Shown here in pieces: positions 1,781 to 44,311 of a DNA stretch of 56,785 bases. The notes beneath the pieces were generated by a model, which saw nothing but the letters and a program-made list of their open reading frames with translations, had not been told where the DNA came from and ran no database searches. The translations under genes and the position numbers were made by a program. Each line of letters opens with the position of its first letter. Position 1 is the first letter of the stretch. Source of the DNA: an uncultured Eubacteriales bacterium (GTDB lineage Bacteria; Bacillota_I; Bacilli_A; RF39; UBA660); NCBI GenBank assembly GCA_900320735.1, contig ONTJ01000031.1, forward strand, positions 1 through 56,785. The letters are read 5' to 3'.

Positions 1781-2266
1781 ATGATTAATAAAAGAAGTGG
1801 ATATATAAGTTGGGATTCATATTTTATGGGAATTGCAGAACTTTCTGCAAATAGAAGCAAAGATCCAAATACTAGGGTTGGTGCATGCATAGTATCAAAA
1901 GATAAGAAAATATTATCAGTGGGATATAATGGCGCACCTAATGGGTATGATGATAATGATATGCCTTGGGATAGAGAAGGAGATTTCATAAATACTAAGT
2001 ATGCATATGTATGTCATGCAGAATTAAATGCAATCCTAAATAATAAGGGTTCTAACTTAGAAGGCTCAACTATTTATGTAGATTTATTTCCATGCAATGA
2101 ATGCGCAAAAGCAATTATTCAATCTGGAATTAAAGAAATAATATATAAATCTGATAAATATAATGGTACTGATAGTAATATAGTATCTAAAAAAATGCTT
2201 GATTATTGTGGTGTGAAATATAGAAAATATGTTGAGGAAGGAAAAGAAATTAATTTAAAATTATAG
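1781..2266 (+). CDS. dCMP (deoxycytidylate) deaminase, ComEB-like
   Basis: 161 aa carrying the zinc-deaminase motifs HAELNAI and PCNECAKAI. The size and layout fit the dCMP deaminase family. Confidence 0.85.
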   Translation: MINKRSGYISWDSYFMGIAELSANRSKDPNTRVGACIVSKDKKILSVGYNGAPNGYDDNDMPWDREGDFINTKYAYVCHAELNAILNNKGSNLEGSTIYVDLFPCNECAKAIIQSGIKEIIYKSDKYNGTDSNIVSKKMLDYCGVKYRKYVEEGKEINLKL

Positions 2267-2296
2267 AAAACTAACTATCAATTAGTTAGTTTTTTT
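2267..2296 (+). terminator. intrinsic terminator after the deaminase gene
   Basis: A stem pairs AAAACTAACTA (2267-2277) with TAGTTAGTTTT (2283-2293) around a 5-nt loop and runs into a T tract. Confidence 0.6.
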
Positions 2297-2304
2297 GATA
2301 TAAT
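2296..2304 (+). promoter_or_regulatory. extended -10 promoter (TGaTATAAT)
   Basis: TGATATAAT lies 22 nt upstream of the ATG at 2326. The same motif recurs upstream of many genes in this window. Confidence 0.45.
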
Positions 2305-2325
2305 ATTTTCTCGAGGTGATTAAAT

Positions 2326-2646
2326 ATGAATTTATTTATAAATGAAATAAAACATAAAATGATTGATGAAAACATTACAGAAGAAAAACTTGCACATATG
2401 ATTGGATGCTCTGAGGTATCACTTAATAAGTGGCTTAGTGAAAAAGAAGAAATGCCTGTTATGATTTCTAATAGTATTAAAAAAACTTTAAACATTATGA
2501 AAAGTGAAGATGAAAAAAATTTAAAAGATTTAGCTGATAGATTTGGCAAATTAAGCGATGAAAATAAAAATAAAGTTTTAGAATACATTGAATTTTTACA
2601 ATATAGTGAAAATAAATTAAAATTATCAATGACACCTAGCTGTTAA
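2326..2646 (+). CDS. small XRE-type helix-turn-helix protein
   Basis: 106 aa. The segment TEEKLAHMIGCSEVSLNKWLSEKE fits an HTH_3-like helix-turn-helix. The C-terminal part is charged. Confidence 0.55.
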   Translation: MNLFINEIKHKMIDENITEEKLAHMIGCSEVSLNKWLSEKEEMPVMISNSIKKTLNIMKSEDEKNLKDLADRFGKLSDENKNKVLEYIEFLQYSENKLKLSMTPSC

Positions 2647-4878: not shown

Positions 4879-5511
4879 ATGAATTTTAATTATGATGGAA
4901 AAAATTATGAAGTTGTTATAGAAAAAAAGAATATAAAAAATACATATATTAGGGTAAAGGATGATCTAAAAATATATGTATCAGCACCACATTTAGCACC
5001 TAAAATTTTTATTAAAAATTTAATTAACAATAATAGAAAACAAATAATAAAGATGATAGAAATAAAAGAAAATAATATGTGCAAAAAGAAATATAATTAT
5101 TACTTAGGTAAAAAAATTAATATCATCTATCAAGATATAAGCAAACCATATTTTATTGAAGATACACTATATGTAAAAGAAAAAGAAGATATAAAAAAAT
5201 GGTATTTAAGTGAGGCAAAGAAAGTATTTAAAGAAAGACTAGATATAATATATAATTCTTTTACAAAAGATGTTCCATATCCAAAATTAGTAATTAGGAA
5301 TATGAAAACAAGATGGGGAGTATGTAATAAGAAACTTGAAAAAGTAACTTTAAATTATAATTTAATTTATATGGATATAAAATATATAGATTATGTAATT
5401 GTACATGAACTTTCTCATTTTATTCATTTTGATCATAGTAAAAGTTTTTGGAAATTGGTTTGTGAAAATGAGCCAAATTATAAGCAAATAAGAAAAGAGA
5501 TGAGAGAATAA
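4879..5511 (+). CDS. M48-family/DUF45 (YgjP-like) zinc metallopeptidase
   Basis: 210 aa. The C-terminal HELSHFIHFDHSKSFWKLV contains an HExxH motif in the context typical of DUF45/YgjP proteins. Confidence 0.75.
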   Translation: MNFNYDGKNYEVVIEKKNIKNTYIRVKDDLKIYVSAPHLAPKIFIKNLINNNRKQIIKMIEIKENNMCKKKYNYYLGKKINIIYQDISKPYFIEDTLYVKEKEDIKKWYLSEAKKVFKERLDIIYNSFTKDVPYPKLVIRNMKTRWGVCNKKLEKVTLNYNLIYMDIKYIDYVIVHELSHFIHFDHSKSFWKLVCENEPNYKQIRKEMRE

Positions 5512-6233
5512 TGTTAATTGAATCTATTGAAAATAAGAAAATAAAAAGTCTAAAAAAATTACATTTAAAGAAATATAGAGAACAAGAAGAAATGTTTTTA
5601 GTTGAGGGTATACATTTAGTAAGTGAAGCATACAAAACAGGAAATCTACTTGAGGTATTACTTTTAGAAGGTAGTGAAATCAATTTAGATGTTAATAAAA
5701 TATACGTTTCAAAAAATGTAATGAAATATATATCTGAACTTGAAACGCCATATGAAATAATAGGTGTATGTAAATATCCCAAAATTAAAGATATTGGTGA
5801 TAGAGTGCTTATGATAGATGGTATTCAAGATCCAGGGAATTTAGGTACTATCATAAGAAGTAGTGTGGCTTTTAATATTGATACAATAATAATTAGTACA
5901 AATTCTGTTGACTTATATAATTCAAAGGTAGTACGAGCTGCACAAGGAATGAATTTTCATATTAACATAATACGAGATGATTTAAGAAAGATAATACTTA
6001 ATTTAAAAAATAATGAATACAAAATATATACAACAGATGTAAATAATGGAAACGAGTTAAAAAATATAAAAAATCCTTTAAAATATGGTATAATAATGGG
6101 GAATGAAGGAAATGGTGTTTCACCTGAAATAGCAAATCTTTCAGACGAAAAAATTTATATAAAAATGAATGAAAATTGTGAAAGTTTAAATGTAGCAGTA
6201 GCCACTTCAATAATATTATATGAACTAATGTAA
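5511..6233 (+). CDS. TrmH/SpoU-family RNA 2'-O-methyltransferase
   Basis: 240 aa carrying SpoU motifs (DGIQDPGNLGTIIRS, GNEGNGVS, ESLNVAVATSIILYE). Its start overlaps the upstream stop as TAATG. Confidence 0.85.
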   Translation: MLIESIENKKIKSLKKLHLKKYREQEEMFLVEGIHLVSEAYKTGNLLEVLLLEGSEINLDVNKIYVSKNVMKYISELETPYEIIGVCKYPKIKDIGDRVLMIDGIQDPGNLGTIIRSSVAFNIDTIIISTNSVDLYNSKVVRAAQGMNFHINIIRDDLRKIILNLKNNEYKIYTTDVNNGNELKNIKNPLKYGIIMGNEGNGVSPEIANLSDEKIYIKMNENCESLNVAVATSIILYELM

Positions 6234-17876: not shown

Positions 17877-17902
17877 TTTAATATATGATGGGAGGAATTG
17901 AT

Positions 17903-19858
17903 ATGAAAAAAAATATATTTTTTATTATAGTTTTCTTATGTTTTCTTCCTTTAACTATTAAAAATGTATATGCACTTGATTCGACATATACAAATGGTAT
18001 TGTTAATAATAGAGGCGTAAATGTAAGAACTGGTCCTGGGACTAATTACGCAGTTGTAAAAACTAATACATATTCAAATATAACTGTTTCTTATCCTGAA
18101 GGTGTGGAAGTTCTTTCACACACCAATGGTTGGACACAAATAAGATTATTATATAATGGCTTTTTATATACTGGTTATATAAGTAGTCAATATTTAGATG
18201 AGACTACATATAATTTAGATATTAATTATTATAATAGCTTAATATCATCTGGTTTTCCTAGTGTATATGCTGAAAAACTTACAAAACTACATGCAGTAAG
18301 ACCTAATTGGAATTTTGTACCATCATTTACTAATGTAAGTTTAAATGATGCTGCACTTAATGAATATTCGCCAATTTATAAAAATTTAATAAGCACATCC
18401 GATACAAGATTACTATCTACCGATGGTGCAGCATATTCAAATGGAACTTATATTCAATTTGAACCAGGTTGGTATGCTCCAAGTATAGATACATTAAAAT
18501 ACTATATGGACCCTAGAAATTTCATTGACAACAGCCATATATTTATGTTTGAGCAATTGTCATATGACTCAAAGGTTACTGAAGCAGACGTTCAGAAAGT
18601 ATTAAATGGTTCATTTATGGAGGGAAGTTATTCATATAATGGCGAAATTTGGACATATGCTAAGACATTTTTAACAGTAGGTAAGGAATATGGTGTTAAT
18701 CCAGTTCATTTAGCAGCTAGAGTACTTCAAGAACAAGGAATGAGTGGAAGTGCAACAGGTGCCATGAATGGCAGTGATGGTTTAATTTATCATAATTATT
18801 TTAATTTTGGTGCGACTGGTTCATCAGCTTCAGAAATAATAGGTAATGCTCTTAATTATGCAATGAAAAATGGTTGGAGTAATCCATATCTTGCAATAAA
18901 AGGTGGTGCAAGTGGAATAGCTAATGGGTACATATCAAATAGACAAGATACCCTTTATTATCAAAAATTTAACATTATAGGTGATGGTAAATATTGGCAC
19001 CAATATATGGCAAACATAACTGCTCCATATACTGAAAGTTATCAAACATACAAGTCATATTATAATTCAAATTTAATAAATACAGCATTTACATTTAAGA
19101 TACCAGTGTATTCAGATATGAAGGAACAGACAATTGTTCCACAAAAGAGTAATAACAATAACTTAAATAGTTTAAATATAACAAATTGTACTTTATCTCC
19201 AACATTTGATTCAGCAATAACAAGTTATACTTGTGAAGTTGAAAATAAAGTGGATAGTGTCAAGATAACTGGTACAATAGATAATTCAGCTAAAGTAAAA
19301 GGACTTGGAGATGTTAAGTTGTCCGAAGGAGAAAATAAAATAAAAATAGAGGTAACTGCAGAAAATGGTACTAACAAGACTTATGAAGTTGTCATAACTA
19401 GAAAAAAAGCAGAAGCTGGCAAGTCCACTCAAGTAGATGTAATTAAATCTGTTGGATTGAAAAACGACAATGATAATTTAACAGGTTTTACTCTAGGTAG
19501 TGATGTTAGTAGTATATCTAAGTTGATAAAAGACAAAAATTCTAATGTAACTATAAAAATCTTTGATTCTTCAGATAAAGCAATAACAAATGGACTTATT
19601 TCTACTGGTCAAAAGATTGAATTAACACTAAATAATTCTACTAAAAAATATAATGTTGTAGTTAGTGGTGATACAAATGGAGATGGAAAAATTGAAATAG
19701 GCGATTATTCAAAAATAAAAGCTTATATTCAAGGAAAAATAAAAATTGATGGAAGTTATTTATTAGCTTCTGACACAAATAGAGATGGAAAAATTGAAAT
19801 AGGTGATTATTCAAAAATAAAAGCTTATATTCAAGGAAGAATAAAATCGTTAGAGTAG
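17903..19858 (+). CDS. secreted peptidoglycan hydrolase (SH3 + glucosaminidase-like domain) with a cadherin-like beta-sandwich domain and a C-terminal type-I dockerin
   Basis: I prefer ATG 17903 (MKKNIFFIIVFLCFLPL is a signal peptide). The domains in order are an SH3-like segment (NNRGVNVRTGPGTNYAVV), a glucosaminidase-like segment (YGVNPVHLAARVLQEQG…NYFNFGA), a cadherin-like module (LNSLNITNCTLSPTFDSAITSYTCEV…KTYEVVITR), and a duplicated dockerin calcium-loop/helix (DTNGDGKIEIGDYSKIKAYIQG twice). Confidence 0.75.
   Translation: MKKNIFFIIVFLCFLPLTIKNVYALDSTYTNGIVNNRGVNVRTGPGTNYAVVKTNTYSNITVSYPEGVEVLSHTNGWTQIRLLYNGFLYTGYISSQYLDETTYNLDINYYNSLISSGFPSVYAEKLTKLHAVRPNWNFVPSFTNVSLNDAALNEYSPIYKNLISTSDTRLLSTDGAAYSNGTYIQFEPGWYAPSIDTLKYYMDPRNFIDNSHIFMFEQLSYDSKVTEADVQKVLNGSFMEGSYSYNGEIWTYAKTFLTVGKEYGVNPVHLAARVLQEQGMSGSATGAMNGSDGLIYHNYFNFGATGSSASEIIGNALNYAMKNGWSNPYLAIKGGASGIANGYISNRQDTLYYQKFNIIGDGKYWHQYMANITAPYTESYQTYKSYYNSNLINTAFTFKIPVYSDMKEQTIVPQKSNNNNLNSLNITNCTLSPTFDSAITSYTCEVENKVDSVKITGTIDNSAKVKGLGDVKLSEGENKIKIEVTAENGTNKTYEVVITRKKAEAGKSTQVDVIKSVGLKNDNDNLTGFTLGSDVSSISKLIKDKNSNVTIKIFDSSDKAITNGLISTGQKIELTLNNSTKKYNVVVSGDTNGDGKIEIGDYSKIKAYIQGKIKIDGSYLLASDTNRDGKIEIGDYSKIKAYIQGRIKSLE
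19681..19838 (+). repeat. internal duplication encoding the two dockerin segments
   Basis: AGATGGAAAAATTGAAATAGG(C/T)GATTATTCAAAAATAAAAGCTTATATTCAAGGAA occurs at 19681-19736 and again at 19783-19838, an offset of 102 nt. Confidence 0.9.
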
Positions 19859-19867
19859 GTGAATATA

Positions 19868-21361
19868 ATGAAAAAAATTAAAATTATTGGCTTGTTTTTA
19901 GTAGGATTATTTATCCTACCAAAACAGGTATTCGCATTTTCTGCAAGCGTTAGGTGTTCTGCACCTAGCAGTGTAACAGTTGGTCAATCATTTACTGTAA
20001 CTATATCTGGAAGTTCAAGTACTGCAACTGATTGGGCAGCAAATGGCGCGGTGAATTCTAGTTCAAATTTGAGATTAACAAGTGGAGATACAGGAAGTGG
20101 TTTATGGTTTGATGATAAATCTTCAATAAGTAAATCATACACTTTTAGTGCTTTAAGTGAAGGAACAGCTACTGTAAGCCAGTCATTTAAAGTAACAAAT
20201 CAAGATGACTTTACAAGTCCAACATACAACTCGAATACATGTACAATAAATATTGTAAAACCAGCACCTGCTACGCCTAAGGTTCAAGCATCTGTAAATA
20301 ATGTTCAAAAAAATAATAATACATCAAATACAAAGAGCAGTGAATCTTCTGATAATTCATTAAAATCGTTATCGATAGATGGTTTTAAGTTAAATCCGGA
20401 TTTTGATAAAGATATACTTGAATATACACTTGATTTATCATCAGATACAAAAAGTATAAAAATAATTGCTGAAAAAAATGATGAAGAAGCAACAGTATCT
20501 GGTGATGGAGAAGTAGAAGTAAAAGAAGGACAAAATACTTTTCAAATATTAGTAACAGCCGAAAATGGTGAATCTAGGACTTATACTATAACAGCAAATG
20601 TTCAAGAAAGTTCATCGATTACCGTAAACATAGGTGGTAAAAAGTATACTGTATTAAAAAAAATAATTGGGCTTGATGCACCAACAGGTTTTGAAAAGAA
20701 AAATATTCAAATAGATAAAACTGAAATAGAAAGTTTTTATAATAAGAAAATAAACTATTCATTAGTGGCACTTAAAGATAATATTGGCAACATCTCACTT
20801 TTTATATATGATGCCCGCTCAGATGAATACATGAAGTATTCTCCTATAGTATCAGATAGTTTTACTATAGTAATATTATCGGCTAATGAAAAAAATATAC
20901 CTCATAATTATCATAAGAGTAAATTTAAATATAATAATGATGAGGTAATTGGATATGCAATAGATGAAAAATCAGATTTCAGATTAATTTATGGTATTAA
21001 TGCTGAAACTGGCAAAAAAGGTTTCTATTTGTATGATACAAAATATAATACAGTTCAAAGATTTGATAATGATCAAGTAAAACTATATAAACGATTACTT
21101 GAAAAATTAAATTTAGCATTTATCATATTTGGATCAGCAATATTATTTTTAATTATCGTAATAATAATATTACTTTCAAAAAATGCAAAATTTAAAAGTA
21201 AATATTTAAAATATAGATTAAATGATATTGATAATCCTACATCTAATGAAATAAAATATCAGGAATTAGAGGGTACAAAAACAATGACAGCTATAGAATT
21301 GAATGATAAAAAAGACAAGAAGAACAAAAAGAAAAAAGAAAAAACATTTTTAGATGAATAA
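19868..21361 (+). CDS. secreted, C-terminally membrane-anchored protein with an Ig/cohesin-like N-domain and a cadherin-like beta-sandwich domain
   Basis: I prefer ATG 19868 (MKKIKIIGLFLVGLFILPKQVFA is a signal peptide). A beta-rich N-domain (VTVGQSFTVTISGSS…) is followed by a P/S/N linker and a cadherin-like module (LKSLSIDGFKLNPDFDKDILEYTLDL…RTYTITANV). A C-terminal TM helix (LAFIIFGSAILFLIIVIIILL) and a K-rich tail complete it. Confidence 0.7.
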   Translation: MKKIKIIGLFLVGLFILPKQVFAFSASVRCSAPSSVTVGQSFTVTISGSSSTATDWAANGAVNSSSNLRLTSGDTGSGLWFDDKSSISKSYTFSALSEGTATVSQSFKVTNQDDFTSPTYNSNTCTINIVKPAPATPKVQASVNNVQKNNNTSNTKSSESSDNSLKSLSIDGFKLNPDFDKDILEYTLDLSSDTKSIKIIAEKNDEEATVSGDGEVEVKEGQNTFQILVTAENGESRTYTITANVQESSSITVNIGGKKYTVLKKIIGLDAPTGFEKKNIQIDKTEIESFYNKKINYSLVALKDNIGNISLFIYDARSDEYMKYSPIVSDSFTIVILSANEKNIPHNYHKSKFKYNNDEVIGYAIDEKSDFRLIYGINAETGKKGFYLYDTKYNTVQRFDNDQVKLYKRLLEKLNLAFIIFGSAILFLIIVIIILLSKNAKFKSKYLKYRLNDIDNPTSNEIKYQELEGTKTMTAIELNDKKDKKNKKKKEKTFLDE

Positions 21362-39837: not shown

Positions 39838-39865
39838 AAAAAGCATAGATAATCTATGCTTTTTT
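39838..39865. terminator. bidirectional intrinsic terminator between convergent genes
   Basis: AAAAAGCATAGAT pairs with ATCTATGCTTTTT to form a hairpin centred near 39851, flanked by A and T runs. Confidence 0.7.
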
Positions 39866-40891
39866 ATTATTAATTAAGCTTTTATAGAATTTATCCCACA
39901 TCTTATAAATATTTTCTTTGCAATAAAAATTTGATATATACTTTGCATTTTCAACAGCCTCTTGATAAGTTTTTTTATCAGTACTTAGTTTTGTTATTAA
40001 TTTAGCAAAGTCATCATTATTATCAGCACATAAATATTTTTTAAATAATATATCTTCATATAATTCTAAATTTCTTAAAACTATTGGAGTATTAGTTGAA
40101 CATGCCTCAAGTATAGTCATAGGAAATAATTCATTATAAGATGGTACGAATAGCAAATCACTTATATTAAATAAATCATTCATGTCATCTCGTGGAATAA
40201 TACCTAAAAAATTGACATTTTTAGGTGGATGTTGCATTACCTTTTCAAGTTCTTTATGTCCATCAGTAATCGCACCAAAAGAGAAGCCTCCGGCCCAGAT
40301 AAATTTTACATTAGGAATCATTTTAGCTACTTCTACAAAATCCAAAACACCTTTTCTATTTTGTACTTGTCCAGCTCCCAATACTACAAAATCTTTTTCA
40401 TCTAATCCATATTTTTTTCTTAGTTTCTTTATTTCACTAGGACTTTTTTTATAAAATTTTTCTTTAGATACGAAATTAGGAATGTATGTTATTTTTTCTT
40501 CTTTAAGACCTGCTTTTATCATATCTTTTTTAAAAATAGGATTTACTACAACTATATGATCAGCTGATTTGTAAAAACTAATTACATATTTTTTAAATAT
40601 TTTAAATGCTAATTTAGGCAATTTTATAGATCCATCTAATGTATCTGGTAAGAAATGTACGTAGGCAATTGTGGGTACTTTTGCTCTTTTTAATTTAATG
40701 TAATTCCTAGGTTCAACAGTATGTGCATGGATTATATCACTATTTTTGATTTTGTCATTCAATAATATTTCAAAATCATCTTTTCCATCTTCTTTTAAAA
40801 GTTTCATAAGCTCAAGATATGCGGAACCAACACCTTGTCCATCAACTGAATCTGCCATTGAAAGCATATTTATTCTAATTTTTTTACTCAT
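39854..40891 (-). CDS. GT4-family glycosyltransferase (possibly a glycolipid synthase)
   Basis: 345 aa. The N-terminus reads INMLSMADSVDGQGVGSAYLEL, and the C-domain reads LGAGQVQNRKG…SYNELFPMTILEA. It is monocistronic on the minus strand. Confidence 0.75.
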   Translation of the reverse strand: MSKKIRINMLSMADSVDGQGVGSAYLELMKLLKEDGKDDFEILLNDKIKNSDIIHAHTVEPRNYIKLKRAKVPTIAYVHFLPDTLDGSIKLPKLAFKIFKKYVISFYKSADHIVVVNPIFKKDMIKAGLKEEKITYIPNFVSKEKFYKKSPSEIKKLRKKYGLDEKDFVVLGAGQVQNRKGVLDFVEVAKMIPNVKFIWAGGFSFGAITDGHKELEKVMQHPPKNVNFLGIIPRDDMNDLFNISDLLFVPSYNELFPMTILEACSTNTPIVLRNLELYEDILFKKYLCADNNDDFAKLITKLSTDKKTYQEAVENAKYISNFYCKENIYKMWDKFYKSLINNKKA

Positions 40892-41003: not shown

Positions 41004-41807
41004 ATGAAGTACTGTTCTAAATGTGGTTCAGAAAATGATGCGGAAGTAAAATTTTGTAGTAAATGTGGAAACTCATTTGAAAATGAAGTATCGGAAAACA
41101 AAAATGTAGTAAGCAAAAATAAGGAAGGACTTGGAGTGGCATCACTTGTAATTGGTATAATAGCATTAGTATTATCTTTTACATGTATATTCTTTATACC
41201 ATTCTTTATTATATTTCCACTTGCACTTGTAGGGTTAATACTAGGTATAGTAAATAAGGTCAAAAAAGGTAGAAAATTTGCAGGTATTATATTAAATGCA
41301 TTTGCATTATTAATATCTATAGTAACATGCATTTTATTTTTCGTGGTAGTAGGATTGACAGTTGACGAAGCAACAACTGAAGGAACTGATTTAAATAAAT
41401 TCATAAATAGATTCTATAATGAACTTGAAAGAGAAACATCAGATAATTATGTAGAAGGTTCATACAATTGCAAAAGTTATTCTGGAAGTGGTGAATCAAA
41501 CGATTATATAGTTCATTTTGATTTATACAAAGATAATACTTTTGTATGGGGCAAATATAATGATACTAATAATAATTATGTAAAAGGAACATATACATTT
41601 AAAGATTTAGACAAGAAAAATGCAAGTGGTGAATATAGTTATTACAATATTAAATTAGATGGTGAAGAATATTACGTAAATTCCGTTAAACAAGATCAAA
41701 AATATGCATCTGAATATGAATTTGGTATAACAGCAGTTAATAGAAAAAAACAAGGTATATTAATGAATGTTAGAACTTATAACATGTATTATTGTTATGA
41801 AGAATAA
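41004..41807 (+). CDS. zinc-ribbon / DUF4190-like membrane protein
   Basis: I prefer ATG 41004 (MKYCSKCGSENDAEVKFCSKCG is a CxxC…CxxC ribbon) because of the TGGAG RBS; the track start 40995 is a GTG. Small-residue-rich TM helices are followed by a Y/N/K-rich soluble domain. Confidence 0.65.
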   Translation: MKYCSKCGSENDAEVKFCSKCGNSFENEVSENKNVVSKNKEGLGVASLVIGIIALVLSFTCIFFIPFFIIFPLALVGLILGIVNKVKKGRKFAGIILNAFALLISIVTCILFFVVVGLTVDEATTEGTDLNKFINRFYNELERETSDNYVEGSYNCKSYSGSGESNDYIVHFDLYKDNTFVWGKYNDTNNNYVKGTYTFKDLDKKNASGEYSYYNIKLDGEEYYVNSVKQDQKYASEYEFGITAVNRKKQGILMNVRTYNMYYCYEE

Positions 41808-41836
41808 GTCCGTTTTGGACTTATTTTTATTTTTTT
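41806..41836 (+). terminator. intrinsic terminator
   Basis: AAGTCC (41806-41811) pairs with GGACTT (41817-41822), followed by ATTTTTATTTTTTT. Confidence 0.7.
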
Positions 41837-41862
41837 ATAATATATTATAATGTATCATTTTT

Positions 41863-41891
41863 TTGACAAAAGAGTCATTATATGATAAAAT
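41863..41891 (+). promoter_or_regulatory. near-consensus sigma-A promoter driving the ncRNA
   Basis: TTGACA (41863-41868), a 17-nt spacer ending in TG (41883-41884), then TAAAAT (41886-41891). No ORF follows it. Confidence 0.7.
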
Positions 41892-41897
41892 TAAGTT

Positions 41898-42509
41898 GTA
41901 TGAAGGGTGCAGTATCCTAGTTGGTACATCTATTATGAAGACGAGCCTAAAAATTCGTTAAAGAGCATACCTGTGAAACTTCTTGTGCTTGCTTGAATCG
42001 CCCAGATTTGGGTGGGTGCTGGGAGGTAGTTATCTGGGGAGCTTATAATGGCATATAAGTGTAGCCCATATGACATAGAGACTTAATATTGTGCTAAACC
42101 GAAATATAGTACGAATTAAGATTAAACCTACTTTGAGGCGAAAGTTTTGAGTAGTGTAGCTTGCCTTGAGTGAATACACTGGGATTATAATATGTATGAA
42201 TAATTTATGGCCAAAATTATTTATATGGATTTGTTATATGAAATTGTATTTGCAAAAAAGACTAATAATAGATAAATATCAGTGAGGAAATCTCCTAGGC
42301 TGTATGTCGATATAAGTTTGCAGTGCGTACTAAGTGGCAATCAAGTCGTATACTTAGGTAACGGTATATACAATTATTAAAGGGGAACCGCCTTTTGGTA
42401 ACGAAAGGTTAATTTGTGGGAAATCCTACTTGACCTATGACGCAAAGTTAATTATATTGATACCAATCATATTTTTTTATTGATACAAACGCATATAATG
42501 CGTTTTTTT
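41898..42509 (+). ncRNA. large structured non-coding RNA (about 610 nt), family unassigned (OLE/ROOL size class)
   Basis: No ORF of 60 aa or more lies on either strand between 41808 and 42523. The element has its own promoter and intrinsic terminator. G+C is markedly higher than the surroundings. It contains multiple hairpins, including a GAAA-tetraloop hairpin at 42128-42154, and long-range helices (42307-42315 with 42452-42460; 42317-42321 with 42442-42446). Confidence 0.7.
42487..42509 (+). terminator. intrinsic terminator of the ncRNA
   Basis: ACGCA (42489-42493) pairs with TGCGT (42499-42503), followed by TTTTTT. Confidence 0.75.
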
Positions 42510-42533
42510 AATCTTTAAATAAGATGTTTTTTA

Positions 42534-42542
42534 TGTTATACT
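42534..42542 (+). promoter_or_regulatory. extended -10 promoter (TGtTATACT)
   Basis: TGTTATACT lies upstream of the AGAGGT RBS and ATG 42563. Confidence 0.4.
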
Positions 42543-42562
42543 TTTATATAGAGGTATTTAAT

Positions 42563-44311
42563 ATGAAGAATAAGGGTTTGATAATTAAAATAATTATTTC
42601 GGTACTTGTAATTTTATTTTTATTATTTGCAGGCAAGTCAATTTTTAATAAATTTAATAGGAATACTCAAATTCAAGGTATAAGACGTGCGTCATATTCT
42701 GATTATGATAATGTATATTGTATTGAGTATAATTGCGAAGCACTCGCAGCGATTAAAGAAGATAGAAAGGAAATAACCATTTTTAATGTAGCCGGAGATA
42801 AAGCATTTAAGTACATTAATAAAAATGATGAAATACCTAAAAATGTAACAGATACTTATTATATTTCGTACTCAAATAAAAAAAATGAATATTATGTACG
42901 AAATAGAGGAAATAAATTATTATTTAAATCCACAAATACATTAACTAAACTAACAGATGATTATTTAATTATGTATAATGGAGTGAATTATTCAATAATT
43001 GATACAACAGGAAAAGAAATATATAAAAATGTATTAAGTTACAAAAAATATGATGATATTTATGAAATAAAGAGTAATGAAAATGTATATATATTAAATA
43101 AAAAATTAGAAAAATTACTTGTTAATTATAATATTTCTAAAGTTTATAAAGATGAATATGATATATTATATTTAATTGTCCAGAATATCGAAAATAAAAA
43201 TTATTATTATTATAATGTTGCTAAAGAAAAAATAATTGGTAACCCCTTTAAATCATATATTGAAAAGAAAAATAATATAATAATTAAAGATAAAAATAAT
43301 ATAGAATATATATTAAGTGAAACTGGAAAACAAGTAAGAATAACCTTAGATAAAAAAGTAGTAAAAAATATAAGTAGAAATTATACTATTTATAATGAAA
43401 GTATTTATAATGAAAAACAAAAATATATTCTCGTAGATAGTAAGAAAGAAAATGCAATAGGAATTTTGGATATAGGAAAAAATAAATTTTATAAATTATA
43501 TTCATATAAAAAAATAAAGAATATTAAATCTGAAATTAGTACGTTAAATGCAGATAATCTCACACTTAAAATATCTTGTTCTTATGCGTGTGATGAAAAT
43601 AAAACTGTTATTTATGATATGGAAGATAATAGAGAATTATTTAGAAAAAATAGTCAGATATATTCGTATATGCAATTTAGTGATAATCATAAAATTGTAA
43701 AATTAAGTGGTAATTTATATGTAGTATATGATAAAAACAATAAAAAAATATTTAAAAGTGAAAAAAAATTATTTATTGCAAATAAGAAAATATTAATAGG
43801 AGATATTCCATATTCTGATATATATTTATATTCTATATCTAAAAATAAAATAATAAATGATAAACCATTAATTATAAATCAGATTAATGATAATATATTA
43901 TATAAAAATATTAATGATAAAAGGGTAACATATATCAATGAAAATGGTGATGTGGTTATTGATATTAACACTAGCAATTATATAAAATTAATTGATAATT
44001 ATTATATTTATATAAACGATAATAATTATTTGAATGTCTATGATATAAATAAAGATAAAACATATAGTTATAAATTTAAAAAAGGTGAATCAATTAAAAA
44101 TATGTATGACTATATTATTAATCCATATAATAATGCTATATTTATTAGTAATAATGATGAACAATATATCAAAATTATGAATTTTAAATTTGATTTGTTT
44201 ACAAAAATAAATGATGCAAAACTATACCAAGTCAAAATAAATGATAAAAATGGTAATGCATATATGATAGTAAAAAATAAAGATAAATATAATATTTATA
44301 TTGCAAAATAA
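42563..44311 (+). CDS. membrane-anchored repeat protein (beta-propeller/WG-repeat-like), unknown function
   Basis: I prefer ATG 42563 (MKNKGLIIKIIISVLVILFLLFAGKS is a signal anchor). The rest consists of reiterated Y/N/K/I-rich modules of about 40-50 aa (…YYVRNRGNKLLFK…, …YSIIDTTGKEIYKN…, …LYVVYDKNNKKIFKS…). The coding DNA is extremely AT-rich. Confidence 0.6.
   Translation: MKNKGLIIKIIISVLVILFLLFAGKSIFNKFNRNTQIQGIRRASYSDYDNVYCIEYNCEALAAIKEDRKEITIFNVAGDKAFKYINKNDEIPKNVTDTYYISYSNKKNEYYVRNRGNKLLFKSTNTLTKLTDDYLIMYNGVNYSIIDTTGKEIYKNVLSYKKYDDIYEIKSNENVYILNKKLEKLLVNYNISKVYKDEYDILYLIVQNIENKNYYYYNVAKEKIIGNPFKSYIEKKNNIIIKDKNNIEYILSETGKQVRITLDKKVVKNISRNYTIYNESIYNEKQKYILVDSKKENAIGILDIGKNKFYKLYSYKKIKNIKSEISTLNADNLTLKISCSYACDENKTVIYDMEDNRELFRKNSQIYSYMQFSDNHKIVKLSGNLYVVYDKNNKKIFKSEKKLFIANKKILIGDIPYSDIYLYSISKNKIINDKPLIINQINDNILYKNINDKRVTYINENGDVVIDINTSNYIKLIDNYYIYINDNNYLNVYDINKDKTYSYKFKKGESIKNMYDYIINPYNNAIFISNNDEQYIKIMNFKFDLFTKINDAKLYQVKINDKNGNAYMIVKNKDKYNIYIAK

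Follow-up and report, generated by a model that had tools for sequence, protein, structure and literature searches.

The stretch of DNA analysed here (the window; 56,785 nt, contig ONTJ01000031.1 from an uncultured Eubacteriales bacterium) contains a gene, ole, for an OLE RNA, which lies between a gene for a zinc-ribbon membrane protein and a gene for a 582-amino-acid protein. Between the stop codon of the zinc-ribbon gene (41807) and the next gene start (42563, the start also called in public assemblies), the longest open reading frame (ORF) on either strand is 49 amino acids (aa), in keeping with a first-pass annotation that had found none of 60 aa or more in this gap and had placed an orphan structured RNA gene of about 610 nt there. 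A whole-window cmscan against Rfam 15 identified a match to OLE (RF01071) in the gap, with a score of 363.6 bits (E = 2.8e-103) that is seven times the gathering score of 50 bits; the match covers model positions 1-616 of 616 and is not truncated. No other Rfam family reached its gathering score in the window except one T-box, and ROOL, GOLLD, raiA, HEARO, RNase P, tmRNA, SRP, and 6S gave no match in the same scan. The annotation had considered the family not assignable by eye and had left two options, a divergent member of a known family in a new context or an undescribed RNA; the full-length match supports the former and led us to drop the latter. The covariance-model comparison it had itself proposed removed the novelty of the RNA and left the feature standing. 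The OLE family was described in 2006, and a family check of this kind should precede novelty claims for such RNAs.

The alignment to the Rfam model comprises 159 consensus pairs, of which 144 are standard in the window RNA, 8 are non-standard, and 7 fall at deleted positions. Both sides differ from the consensus in 77 of the 144 standard pairs, and the 144 standard pairs among the 152 that could be tested compare with 65 ± 6 when the 3′ partners were permuted. Highly conserved nucleotides (upper case in the consensus) are identical at 205 of 249 positions. Among the conserved blocks present are GGUGCAGUAU.CUAGU, CCUAAAAAU, the GCCCA loop, AAUGGCAU, the GGCC loop, ACUAAGUGG, UUAAAGGG.AACC, and GGGAAAUCCUAC..GACCUA; a small hairpin at model positions 424-435 is wholly deleted. 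As judged from this alignment, the interval is an intact OLE RNA of the full-length type. The complementary segments that had been paired by eye in the first-pass annotation all exist, and four of the helices proposed from them (42042-42059, 42128-42154, 42193-42227, and 42305-42315 with 42452-42462) belong to the consensus fold. The other three (CCCAGAT/ATCTGGG, CTAAGT/ACTTAG, and 42317-42321 with 42442-42446) conflict with it, the consensus pairing 42324-42328 with 42440-42444 in place of the last.

The domains of the RNA are listed in Table 1. The second of the two hairpins assigned to P7 and P8 is capped by GCGAAA. P9, to which we assign the long composite stem with the palindromic loop, is a dimer contact in cryo-electron microscopy models of OLE (PMC12265935). 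In the 3′ domain, the P13-like hairpin retains the GNRA loop and bulged nucleotide on which OapB binding depends in H. halodurans (PMC7936274).

On its sequence signals, ole is an autonomous transcription unit, consisting of the terminator of the upstream gene, which shields ole against transcription from upstream, its own promoter, the conserved RNA, and its own terminator. The promoter and the intrinsic terminator reported in the first-pass annotation were both recovered by our scans, the promoter with its TG and as the top-scoring site of the region; transcription would start near 41898. Three terminator-like sites occur in the scanned kilobase, compared to 0.2 expected from shuffles. The G+C content of the OLE interval is 34.6% against 24.7% for the whole window, a value attained by only 0.1% of all 595-nt stretches of the window, and the earlier hand counts of G+C per 60 nt (24, 29, and 23, versus 5 in a neighbouring coding line) proved exact on recount. 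The predicted transcript (41898-42512) has a folding energy of −161.4 kcal/mol, more stable than each of 20 shuffles (z = −3.3). Together with the OLE match and the flanking signals, this upholds the proposal that a highly structured RNA of about 610 nt is encoded here by a gene of its own, and illustrates that in an AT-rich genome a real structured RNA can be recognised by an island of raised G+C flanked by a promoter and a terminator.

Table 1 Features of the ole locus in the window.
Feature	Position	Strand	Description
GT4-family glycosyltransferase gene	39854..40891	-	Ancestral left flank (inferred); 84%/80% identity to L153/L155
Zinc-ribbon membrane protein gene	41004..41807	+	Conserved upstream neighbour of ole in the clade; 63%/52% identity to L153/L155
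Intrinsic terminator of zinc-ribbon gene	41800..41837	+	13-bp stem, then T-run
ole promoter	41863..41891	+	-35 TTGACA, 17-nt spacer, TG-extended -10 TAAAAT; 11/12 consensus matches
OLE RNA (RF01071), full-length type	41888..42482	+	Conserved core 41904-42465
Long hairpin	41979..42025	+	20 bp; invariant GCCCA loop; model 93-139
Two hairpins	42082..42154	+	Inferred P7 and P8; model 198-241 and 249-277
Long composite stem	42163..42262	+	Palindromic GGCC loop; model 286-383; inferred P9
3′ domain	42305..42462	+	Closed by long-range helices
Closing helices of 3′ domain	42305-42315/42452-42462; 42324-42328/42440-42444; 42341-42346/42428-42433	+	Consensus fold
P13-like hairpin	42348-42369	+	GUAA GNRA loop plus bulged nucleotide
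3′-domain hairpin	42390-42409	+	GUAA loop
ole intrinsic terminator	42487..42512	+	AAACGCAT-ATA-ATGCGTTT hairpin 42487-42505, then T-run
Putative rearrangement junction	42510..42562	+	Likeness to ancestral ole-oapA spacer stops just past T-run
Promoter-like site inside junction	42514-42542	+	TG-TATACT; ribosome-binding site of 582-aa gene also in junction segment
582-aa protein gene	42563..44311	+	N-terminal hydrophobic stretch (from translation); sits where relatives have oapA

What sets this locus apart is the absence of oapA. From 120 GTDB-derived OLE loci (one genome per species, gathered by a 5′-motif scan), we built an OapA hidden Markov model (HMM) from 67 ORFs downstream of OLE, the consensus of which contains a DxxxD motif. 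Among the 93 loci with enough downstream sequence, oapA directly follows OLE in 91; the exceptions are L109, in which a 283-aa ORF intervenes, and L016, with no oapA within 1.8 kb. An ole gene with no adjoining oapA is uncommon, at roughly 2% of sampled loci. A six-frame search of the window with the OapA HMM returned no OapA (best E = 0.33), and no PF01595-type gene was found in the 10 kb beyond either window end, giving a total of about 77 kb with no oapA. Annotation and the OapA HMM over the window and these extensions also agree with the first-pass annotation that the usual oapA, isoprenoid, and recN neighbours are absent.

The two exceptional loci deserve a description of their own. In L109, an RF39-like metagenome-assembled genome (MAG), the 283-aa ORF lies at 5293-6144 in the OLE-forward orientation, so that the group includes a second locus with loosened ole-oapA linkage. 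The L016 OLE (1838-2470, minus strand, stored coordinates) scores 468 bits, and the 1.8 kb that follow it contain no OapA-like ORF; this is possibly another unlinked case, in an unrelated GC-rich Bacillota MAG.

A candidate for the missing gene was found by searching a protein collection with the OapA of L072 as query. The best 120 relatives were too alike to choose among by score, and one, P0066, was singled out by its gene context instead. P0066 has 173 aa, is 73% identical to L072 OapA, and contains the DxxxD motif. Its locus (L130) has the order TopA - 212 aa - DUF2779 - oapA - 289 aa (-) - 145 aa - BipA, with no OLE within 3 kb by nhmmer or Rfam. In the sister-species loci of P0039 (L153 and L154) and P0090 (L155 and L156), by comparison, the order is glycosyltransferase (-) - zinc-ribbon - OLE - oapA - ... 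- BipA, and L153 additionally has a 290-aa (-) and a 145-aa gene ahead of BipA. We take this order to be ancestral. The OLEs of L153 and L155 are the closest to the window OLE that we found (472 and 435 nhmmer bits; 93% and 89% identity). P0066 shares with L153 and L155, respectively, 75% and 74% identity in oapA, and its locus 88% and 83% in BipA; the 290-aa and 145-aa genes of L153 match their P0066-locus counterparts at 43% and 75%, and among these flanking genes L155 matches at BipA only.

The window aligns with L153 and L155 through the ole terminator and diverges after it, and in the P0066 locus the similarity to them begins about 12 nt ahead of the start codon of oapA. Because one alignment ends and the other begins in the same spacer, the two loci appear to be complementary halves of one ancestral locus, with a breakpoint that would fall within the spacer of about 16-25 nt from the terminator T-run to the ribosome-binding site of oapA. 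In the sister loci (L153/L154 and L155/L156), oapA starts about 25 nt past the ole terminator, whereas the window has unrelated sequence and the 582-aa gene at this place. The glycosyltransferase and zinc-ribbon left flank and the position of the terminator are common to both. The -35 and TG-extended -10 hexamers are shared with L153, L155 having TGcTATAAT, and the sister terminators have another stem sequence (GCAT/ATGC versus CCAG/CTGG).

Directly past the ole terminator and ahead of oapA, at about 4960-5000, L153 and L155 carry an extended -10 element, TGTTATAAT (TGnTATAAT), which may drive oapA. If it does, the two genes were being transcribed separately before the split, which would explain why it was tolerated. 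At 42540-42556, ahead of the 582-aa gene, the window has TTTTTTATGTTATACT, which resembles this element and may be a remnant of the old oapA promoter or a chance likeness in AT-rich DNA.

Both half-loci were seen in the same six metagenome assemblies (ERZ1029115, WOLF17-1 S004, S013, S014, and S015, and SRR4435579), both have a G+C content of 0.25, and both show a between-sample identity of about 99.7%. The tetranucleotide distance between the oapA locus and the window (0.011) is within the window's own range of 0.008-0.019. From synteny, co-occurrence, and composition, ole and the P0066 oapA very probably lie unlinked within one genome. The data come from metagenome assemblies, so an assembly chimera that falsely joined ole to the 582-aa gene had to be considered; it was excluded, to the extent of a vanishingly small residual chance, because the zinc-ribbon - OLE - 582-aa junction recurs in at least five independent assemblies (L143-L146 and L149) and the DUF2779 - oapA junction in at least ten.

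The window OLE, at 363.6 bits, scores no lower than the sister OLEs with adjacent oapA (361.1 and 346.0 bits) or the variant OLEs (248-298 bits). With the three closest species taken together, 91.4% of cells are paired, compared to 37-50% in slid-partner controls, and 14 pairs have two-sided changes, compared to 5.2 in shuffles, none of 500 of which reached 14. Eighteen substitutions are specific to the window in that they differ from both relatives; 14 are at paired positions, none of the 18 disrupts pairing that the relatives have intact, and C-G has become U-A in one pair. The 755-nt intergenic region is identical across five strain contigs, four of which allowed a gap-free comparison of the flanks, these differing by 0.14-0.33%; with an expectation of only 1-2.5 differences per contig, the identity is weak evidence alone. 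We see no sign of decay, and the window OLE appears to be under structural constraint. In a separate comparison of the window with L001, L144, and L127 (STEW18-1 scaffold_9), there were 4-15 differences per 12-25 kb (about 99.93-99.97% identity) and none within 41808-42562; the window therefore represents another, nearly identical assembly of this species.

Taken together, we favour, at a probability of about 0.9, the interpretation that the OLE RNA is transcribed as its own unit from a locus whose ancestor was split between ole and oapA, with oapA now acting in trans. A rearrangement in a rumen Bacilli lineage would have broken the ancestral series from glycosyltransferase to BipA in the ole-oapA spacer, leaving ole ahead of an unrelated 582-aa gene and oapA (P0066) after a DUF2779 gene elsewhere. 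The RNA of about 610 nt, running from its promoter to its terminator, would, from the family literature, fold into two domains and dimerise. OapA, a small four-helix membrane protein, would be supplied in trans and recruit the RNA to the membrane, and the resulting OLE-OapA ribonucleoprotein (RNP) may help the cell to withstand alcohols, cold, excess Mg2+, and poor carbon sources. Only for the OLE RNAs of H. halodurans and clostridia are localisation at the membrane, dimer formation, and stress phenotypes known. The locus would be a natural example, mapped precisely, of an ole gene unlinked from oapA whose RNA is still structurally constrained, which fits action in trans.

Several observations weigh against this interpretation. 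No one contig or named assembly was found with both ole and the P0066 oapA, the link between them being synteny, co-occurrence, and composition, and the tetranucleotide distance is non-discriminating, since the related species L140 is also in range (0.013-0.014). Another copy of ole elsewhere in the genome is possible. J4a/5, the kink-turn (k-turn) segment bound by OapC as described for H. halodurans (PMC9723947), is diverged in the window OLE: 6 of the 44 mismatches at highly conserved positions fall in 41964-41978, and flanking P5 the consensus CAUCGAUGAAG is replaced by CAUACCUGUGAAA, with six conserved positions substituted. OapC has been reported absent from related RF39-type clades, with which the k-turn divergence is consistent. 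Because of this divergence and the deleted hairpin at model 424-435, the composition of the RNP may differ from that of the model organism.

It is very unlikely, in our estimate, that OLE, once severed, became independent of OapA and has found a new partner or role in the membrane-anchored 582-aa protein or the wall-glycopolymer cluster upstream. The position of ole invites the idea: a wall-polymer cluster of about 28 kb has ole at its 3′ end, and ole lies directly upstream of a clade-specific protein with a hydrophobic N-terminus, and a link between OLE and the cell wall has been speculated on in the literature. However, OLE is missing upstream of the genes for this protein's homologues in related species, a terminator separates ole from the 582-aa gene, and the glycosyltransferase and zinc-ribbon flank is also present where oapA still adjoins. 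Because this left flank is ancestral, a single rearrangement accounts for the window context, and a rewired OLE working with the protein, with the cluster, or with no OapA at all has little to recommend it.

There is an equally slim chance that ole is a decaying pseudogene, functionless after losing its link to oapA. Rare defective OLE genes are mentioned in the literature for genomes with no OapA, oapA does not adjoin ole here, and the score of 363.6 bits is under those of typical OLEs. The sister OLEs with adjacent oapA also score low, however, so the lowered score reflects the clade and its AT richness and not decay. Pairing is nearly complete, and the substitutions specific to the window leave the structure unharmed. 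Promoter and terminator are both intact, strains do not differ in this region, and the genome very probably carries a matching oapA at another locus. The idea of an undescribed RNA, of another ornate family (ROOL, GOLLD, raiA, or HEARO), or of two RNAs, one of 225 nt from the internal promoter that the first-pass annotation had proposed at 42250-42278 (TTGCAA-17-TAAATA), draws on size class and this motif only and can be set aside almost entirely, as OLE and the T-box are the only Rfam matches in the window, and the motif failed the promoter scan and overlaps the conserved, helix-rich OLE core UGCAAAAgAGGcUA.

We also compared the window RNA to other OLE types. Among 15 comparison loci, typical OLEs score 440-551 bits and three AT-rich ones 248-298 bits. 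Compared to the full-length OLEs of H. halodurans, Clostridium acetobutylicum, and C. botulinum, the window RNA has all major helices and most invariant nucleotides, the GCCCA loop, the palindromic GGCC loop, the inferred P7 and P8 hairpins, the P13-like GNRA loop with its bulge, a length of about 600 nt, and a Bacillota host. It differs in its lower score and mostly A-U- and G-U-rich stems, both attributable to its G+C content of 35%, in the missing model 424-435 hairpin and the diverged k-turn segment, and in its setting, in which ole has its own promoter and terminator, no downstream oapA, and no dxs, ispA, or recN neighbours.

Within the 120 GTDB-derived loci, the nearest by sequence are L072 and L109, both 'Bacilli bacterium' MAGs from ruminants; they form the second-closest group after the sister OLEs. 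Their 5′ and 3′ domains are near-identical to those of the window over long stretches, their k-turn is diverged alike, and their genomes are likewise AT-rich ruminant-gut Bacilli MAGs. They lack exactly the hairpins at 42082-42120 and 42128-42154, and in this correspond to the published 'variant 2' OLE of the RF39 clade, which has no P7 and P8 (Fernando and Breaker 2024, PMC11332333). These OLEs are about 530 nt long and keep oapA downstream, directly (L072) or past the 283-aa ORF (L109), whereas the window RNA retains P7 and P8. Because both hairpins are retained, the window holds a full-length-type OLE in a very AT-rich, RF39-like lineage, whose OLEs are usually truncated.

ROOL and GOLLD, neither of which reaches its Rfam gathering score in the window, are frequently associated with phages or tRNA genes, unlike the window locus. 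They have the size class, ornate fold, and homo-oligomeric assembly in common with OLE (PMC12286853).

The host is placed in Bacillota indirectly, through the 'Bacilli bacterium' MAG labels, from ruminant gut, of the nearest loci and protein homologues. The records of the OLE contigs L030, L073, and L102 name Desulfovibrionaceae, Deltaproteobacteria, and Actinomycetota, but mis-binning of Bacillota contigs is the probable cause, in line with what the literature proposes for rare non-Bacillota matches.

Upstream of ole, Pfam and NCBIfam searches delineated the cell-envelope glycopolymer cluster at about 13000-41000 of the window, ending at the zinc-ribbon membrane protein. Its members include an LtaS-like sulfatase, an LCP protein, TagA/WecG, an O-antigen-ligase-like protein, at least eight glycosyltransferases, an ABC-2 exporter pair, UDP-GlcNAc 2-epimerase, GtrA, and DUF6020. 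Downstream, the 582-aa protein had no match in Pfam or NCBIfam; homologues of 590-712 aa, with 30-37% identity to it, were found only in related uncultured Bacilli, and since none has an OLE upstream among those found, we rejected it as a conserved OLE partner. The DNA of its gene has a G+C content of only 14-20%. Beyond it lie genes for ABC-F, FtsW, thymidine kinase, Fic, and others, and within 10 kb past the right end of the window (L122) the cell-division genes for MurG, an FtsQ-like protein, FtsA, and FtsZ.

The T-box leader (267-445, +; 93.8 bits against a gathering score of 93) is located directly ahead of the seryl-tRNA synthetase gene serS (483-1772), an ordinary arrangement. At 17885-21361 (+), the window encodes two adjoining secreted-type proteins with cadherin-like β-sandwich domains, the first of which also has an SH3 and a type I dockerin domain, something unexpected in a small AT-rich Bacilli genome. 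About 6.2-6.4 kb past the left end of the window, a gene for Coat_F (spore-coat protein F; L127, 3111-3359) hints at an ability to sporulate that this reduced, AT-rich lineage may have kept.

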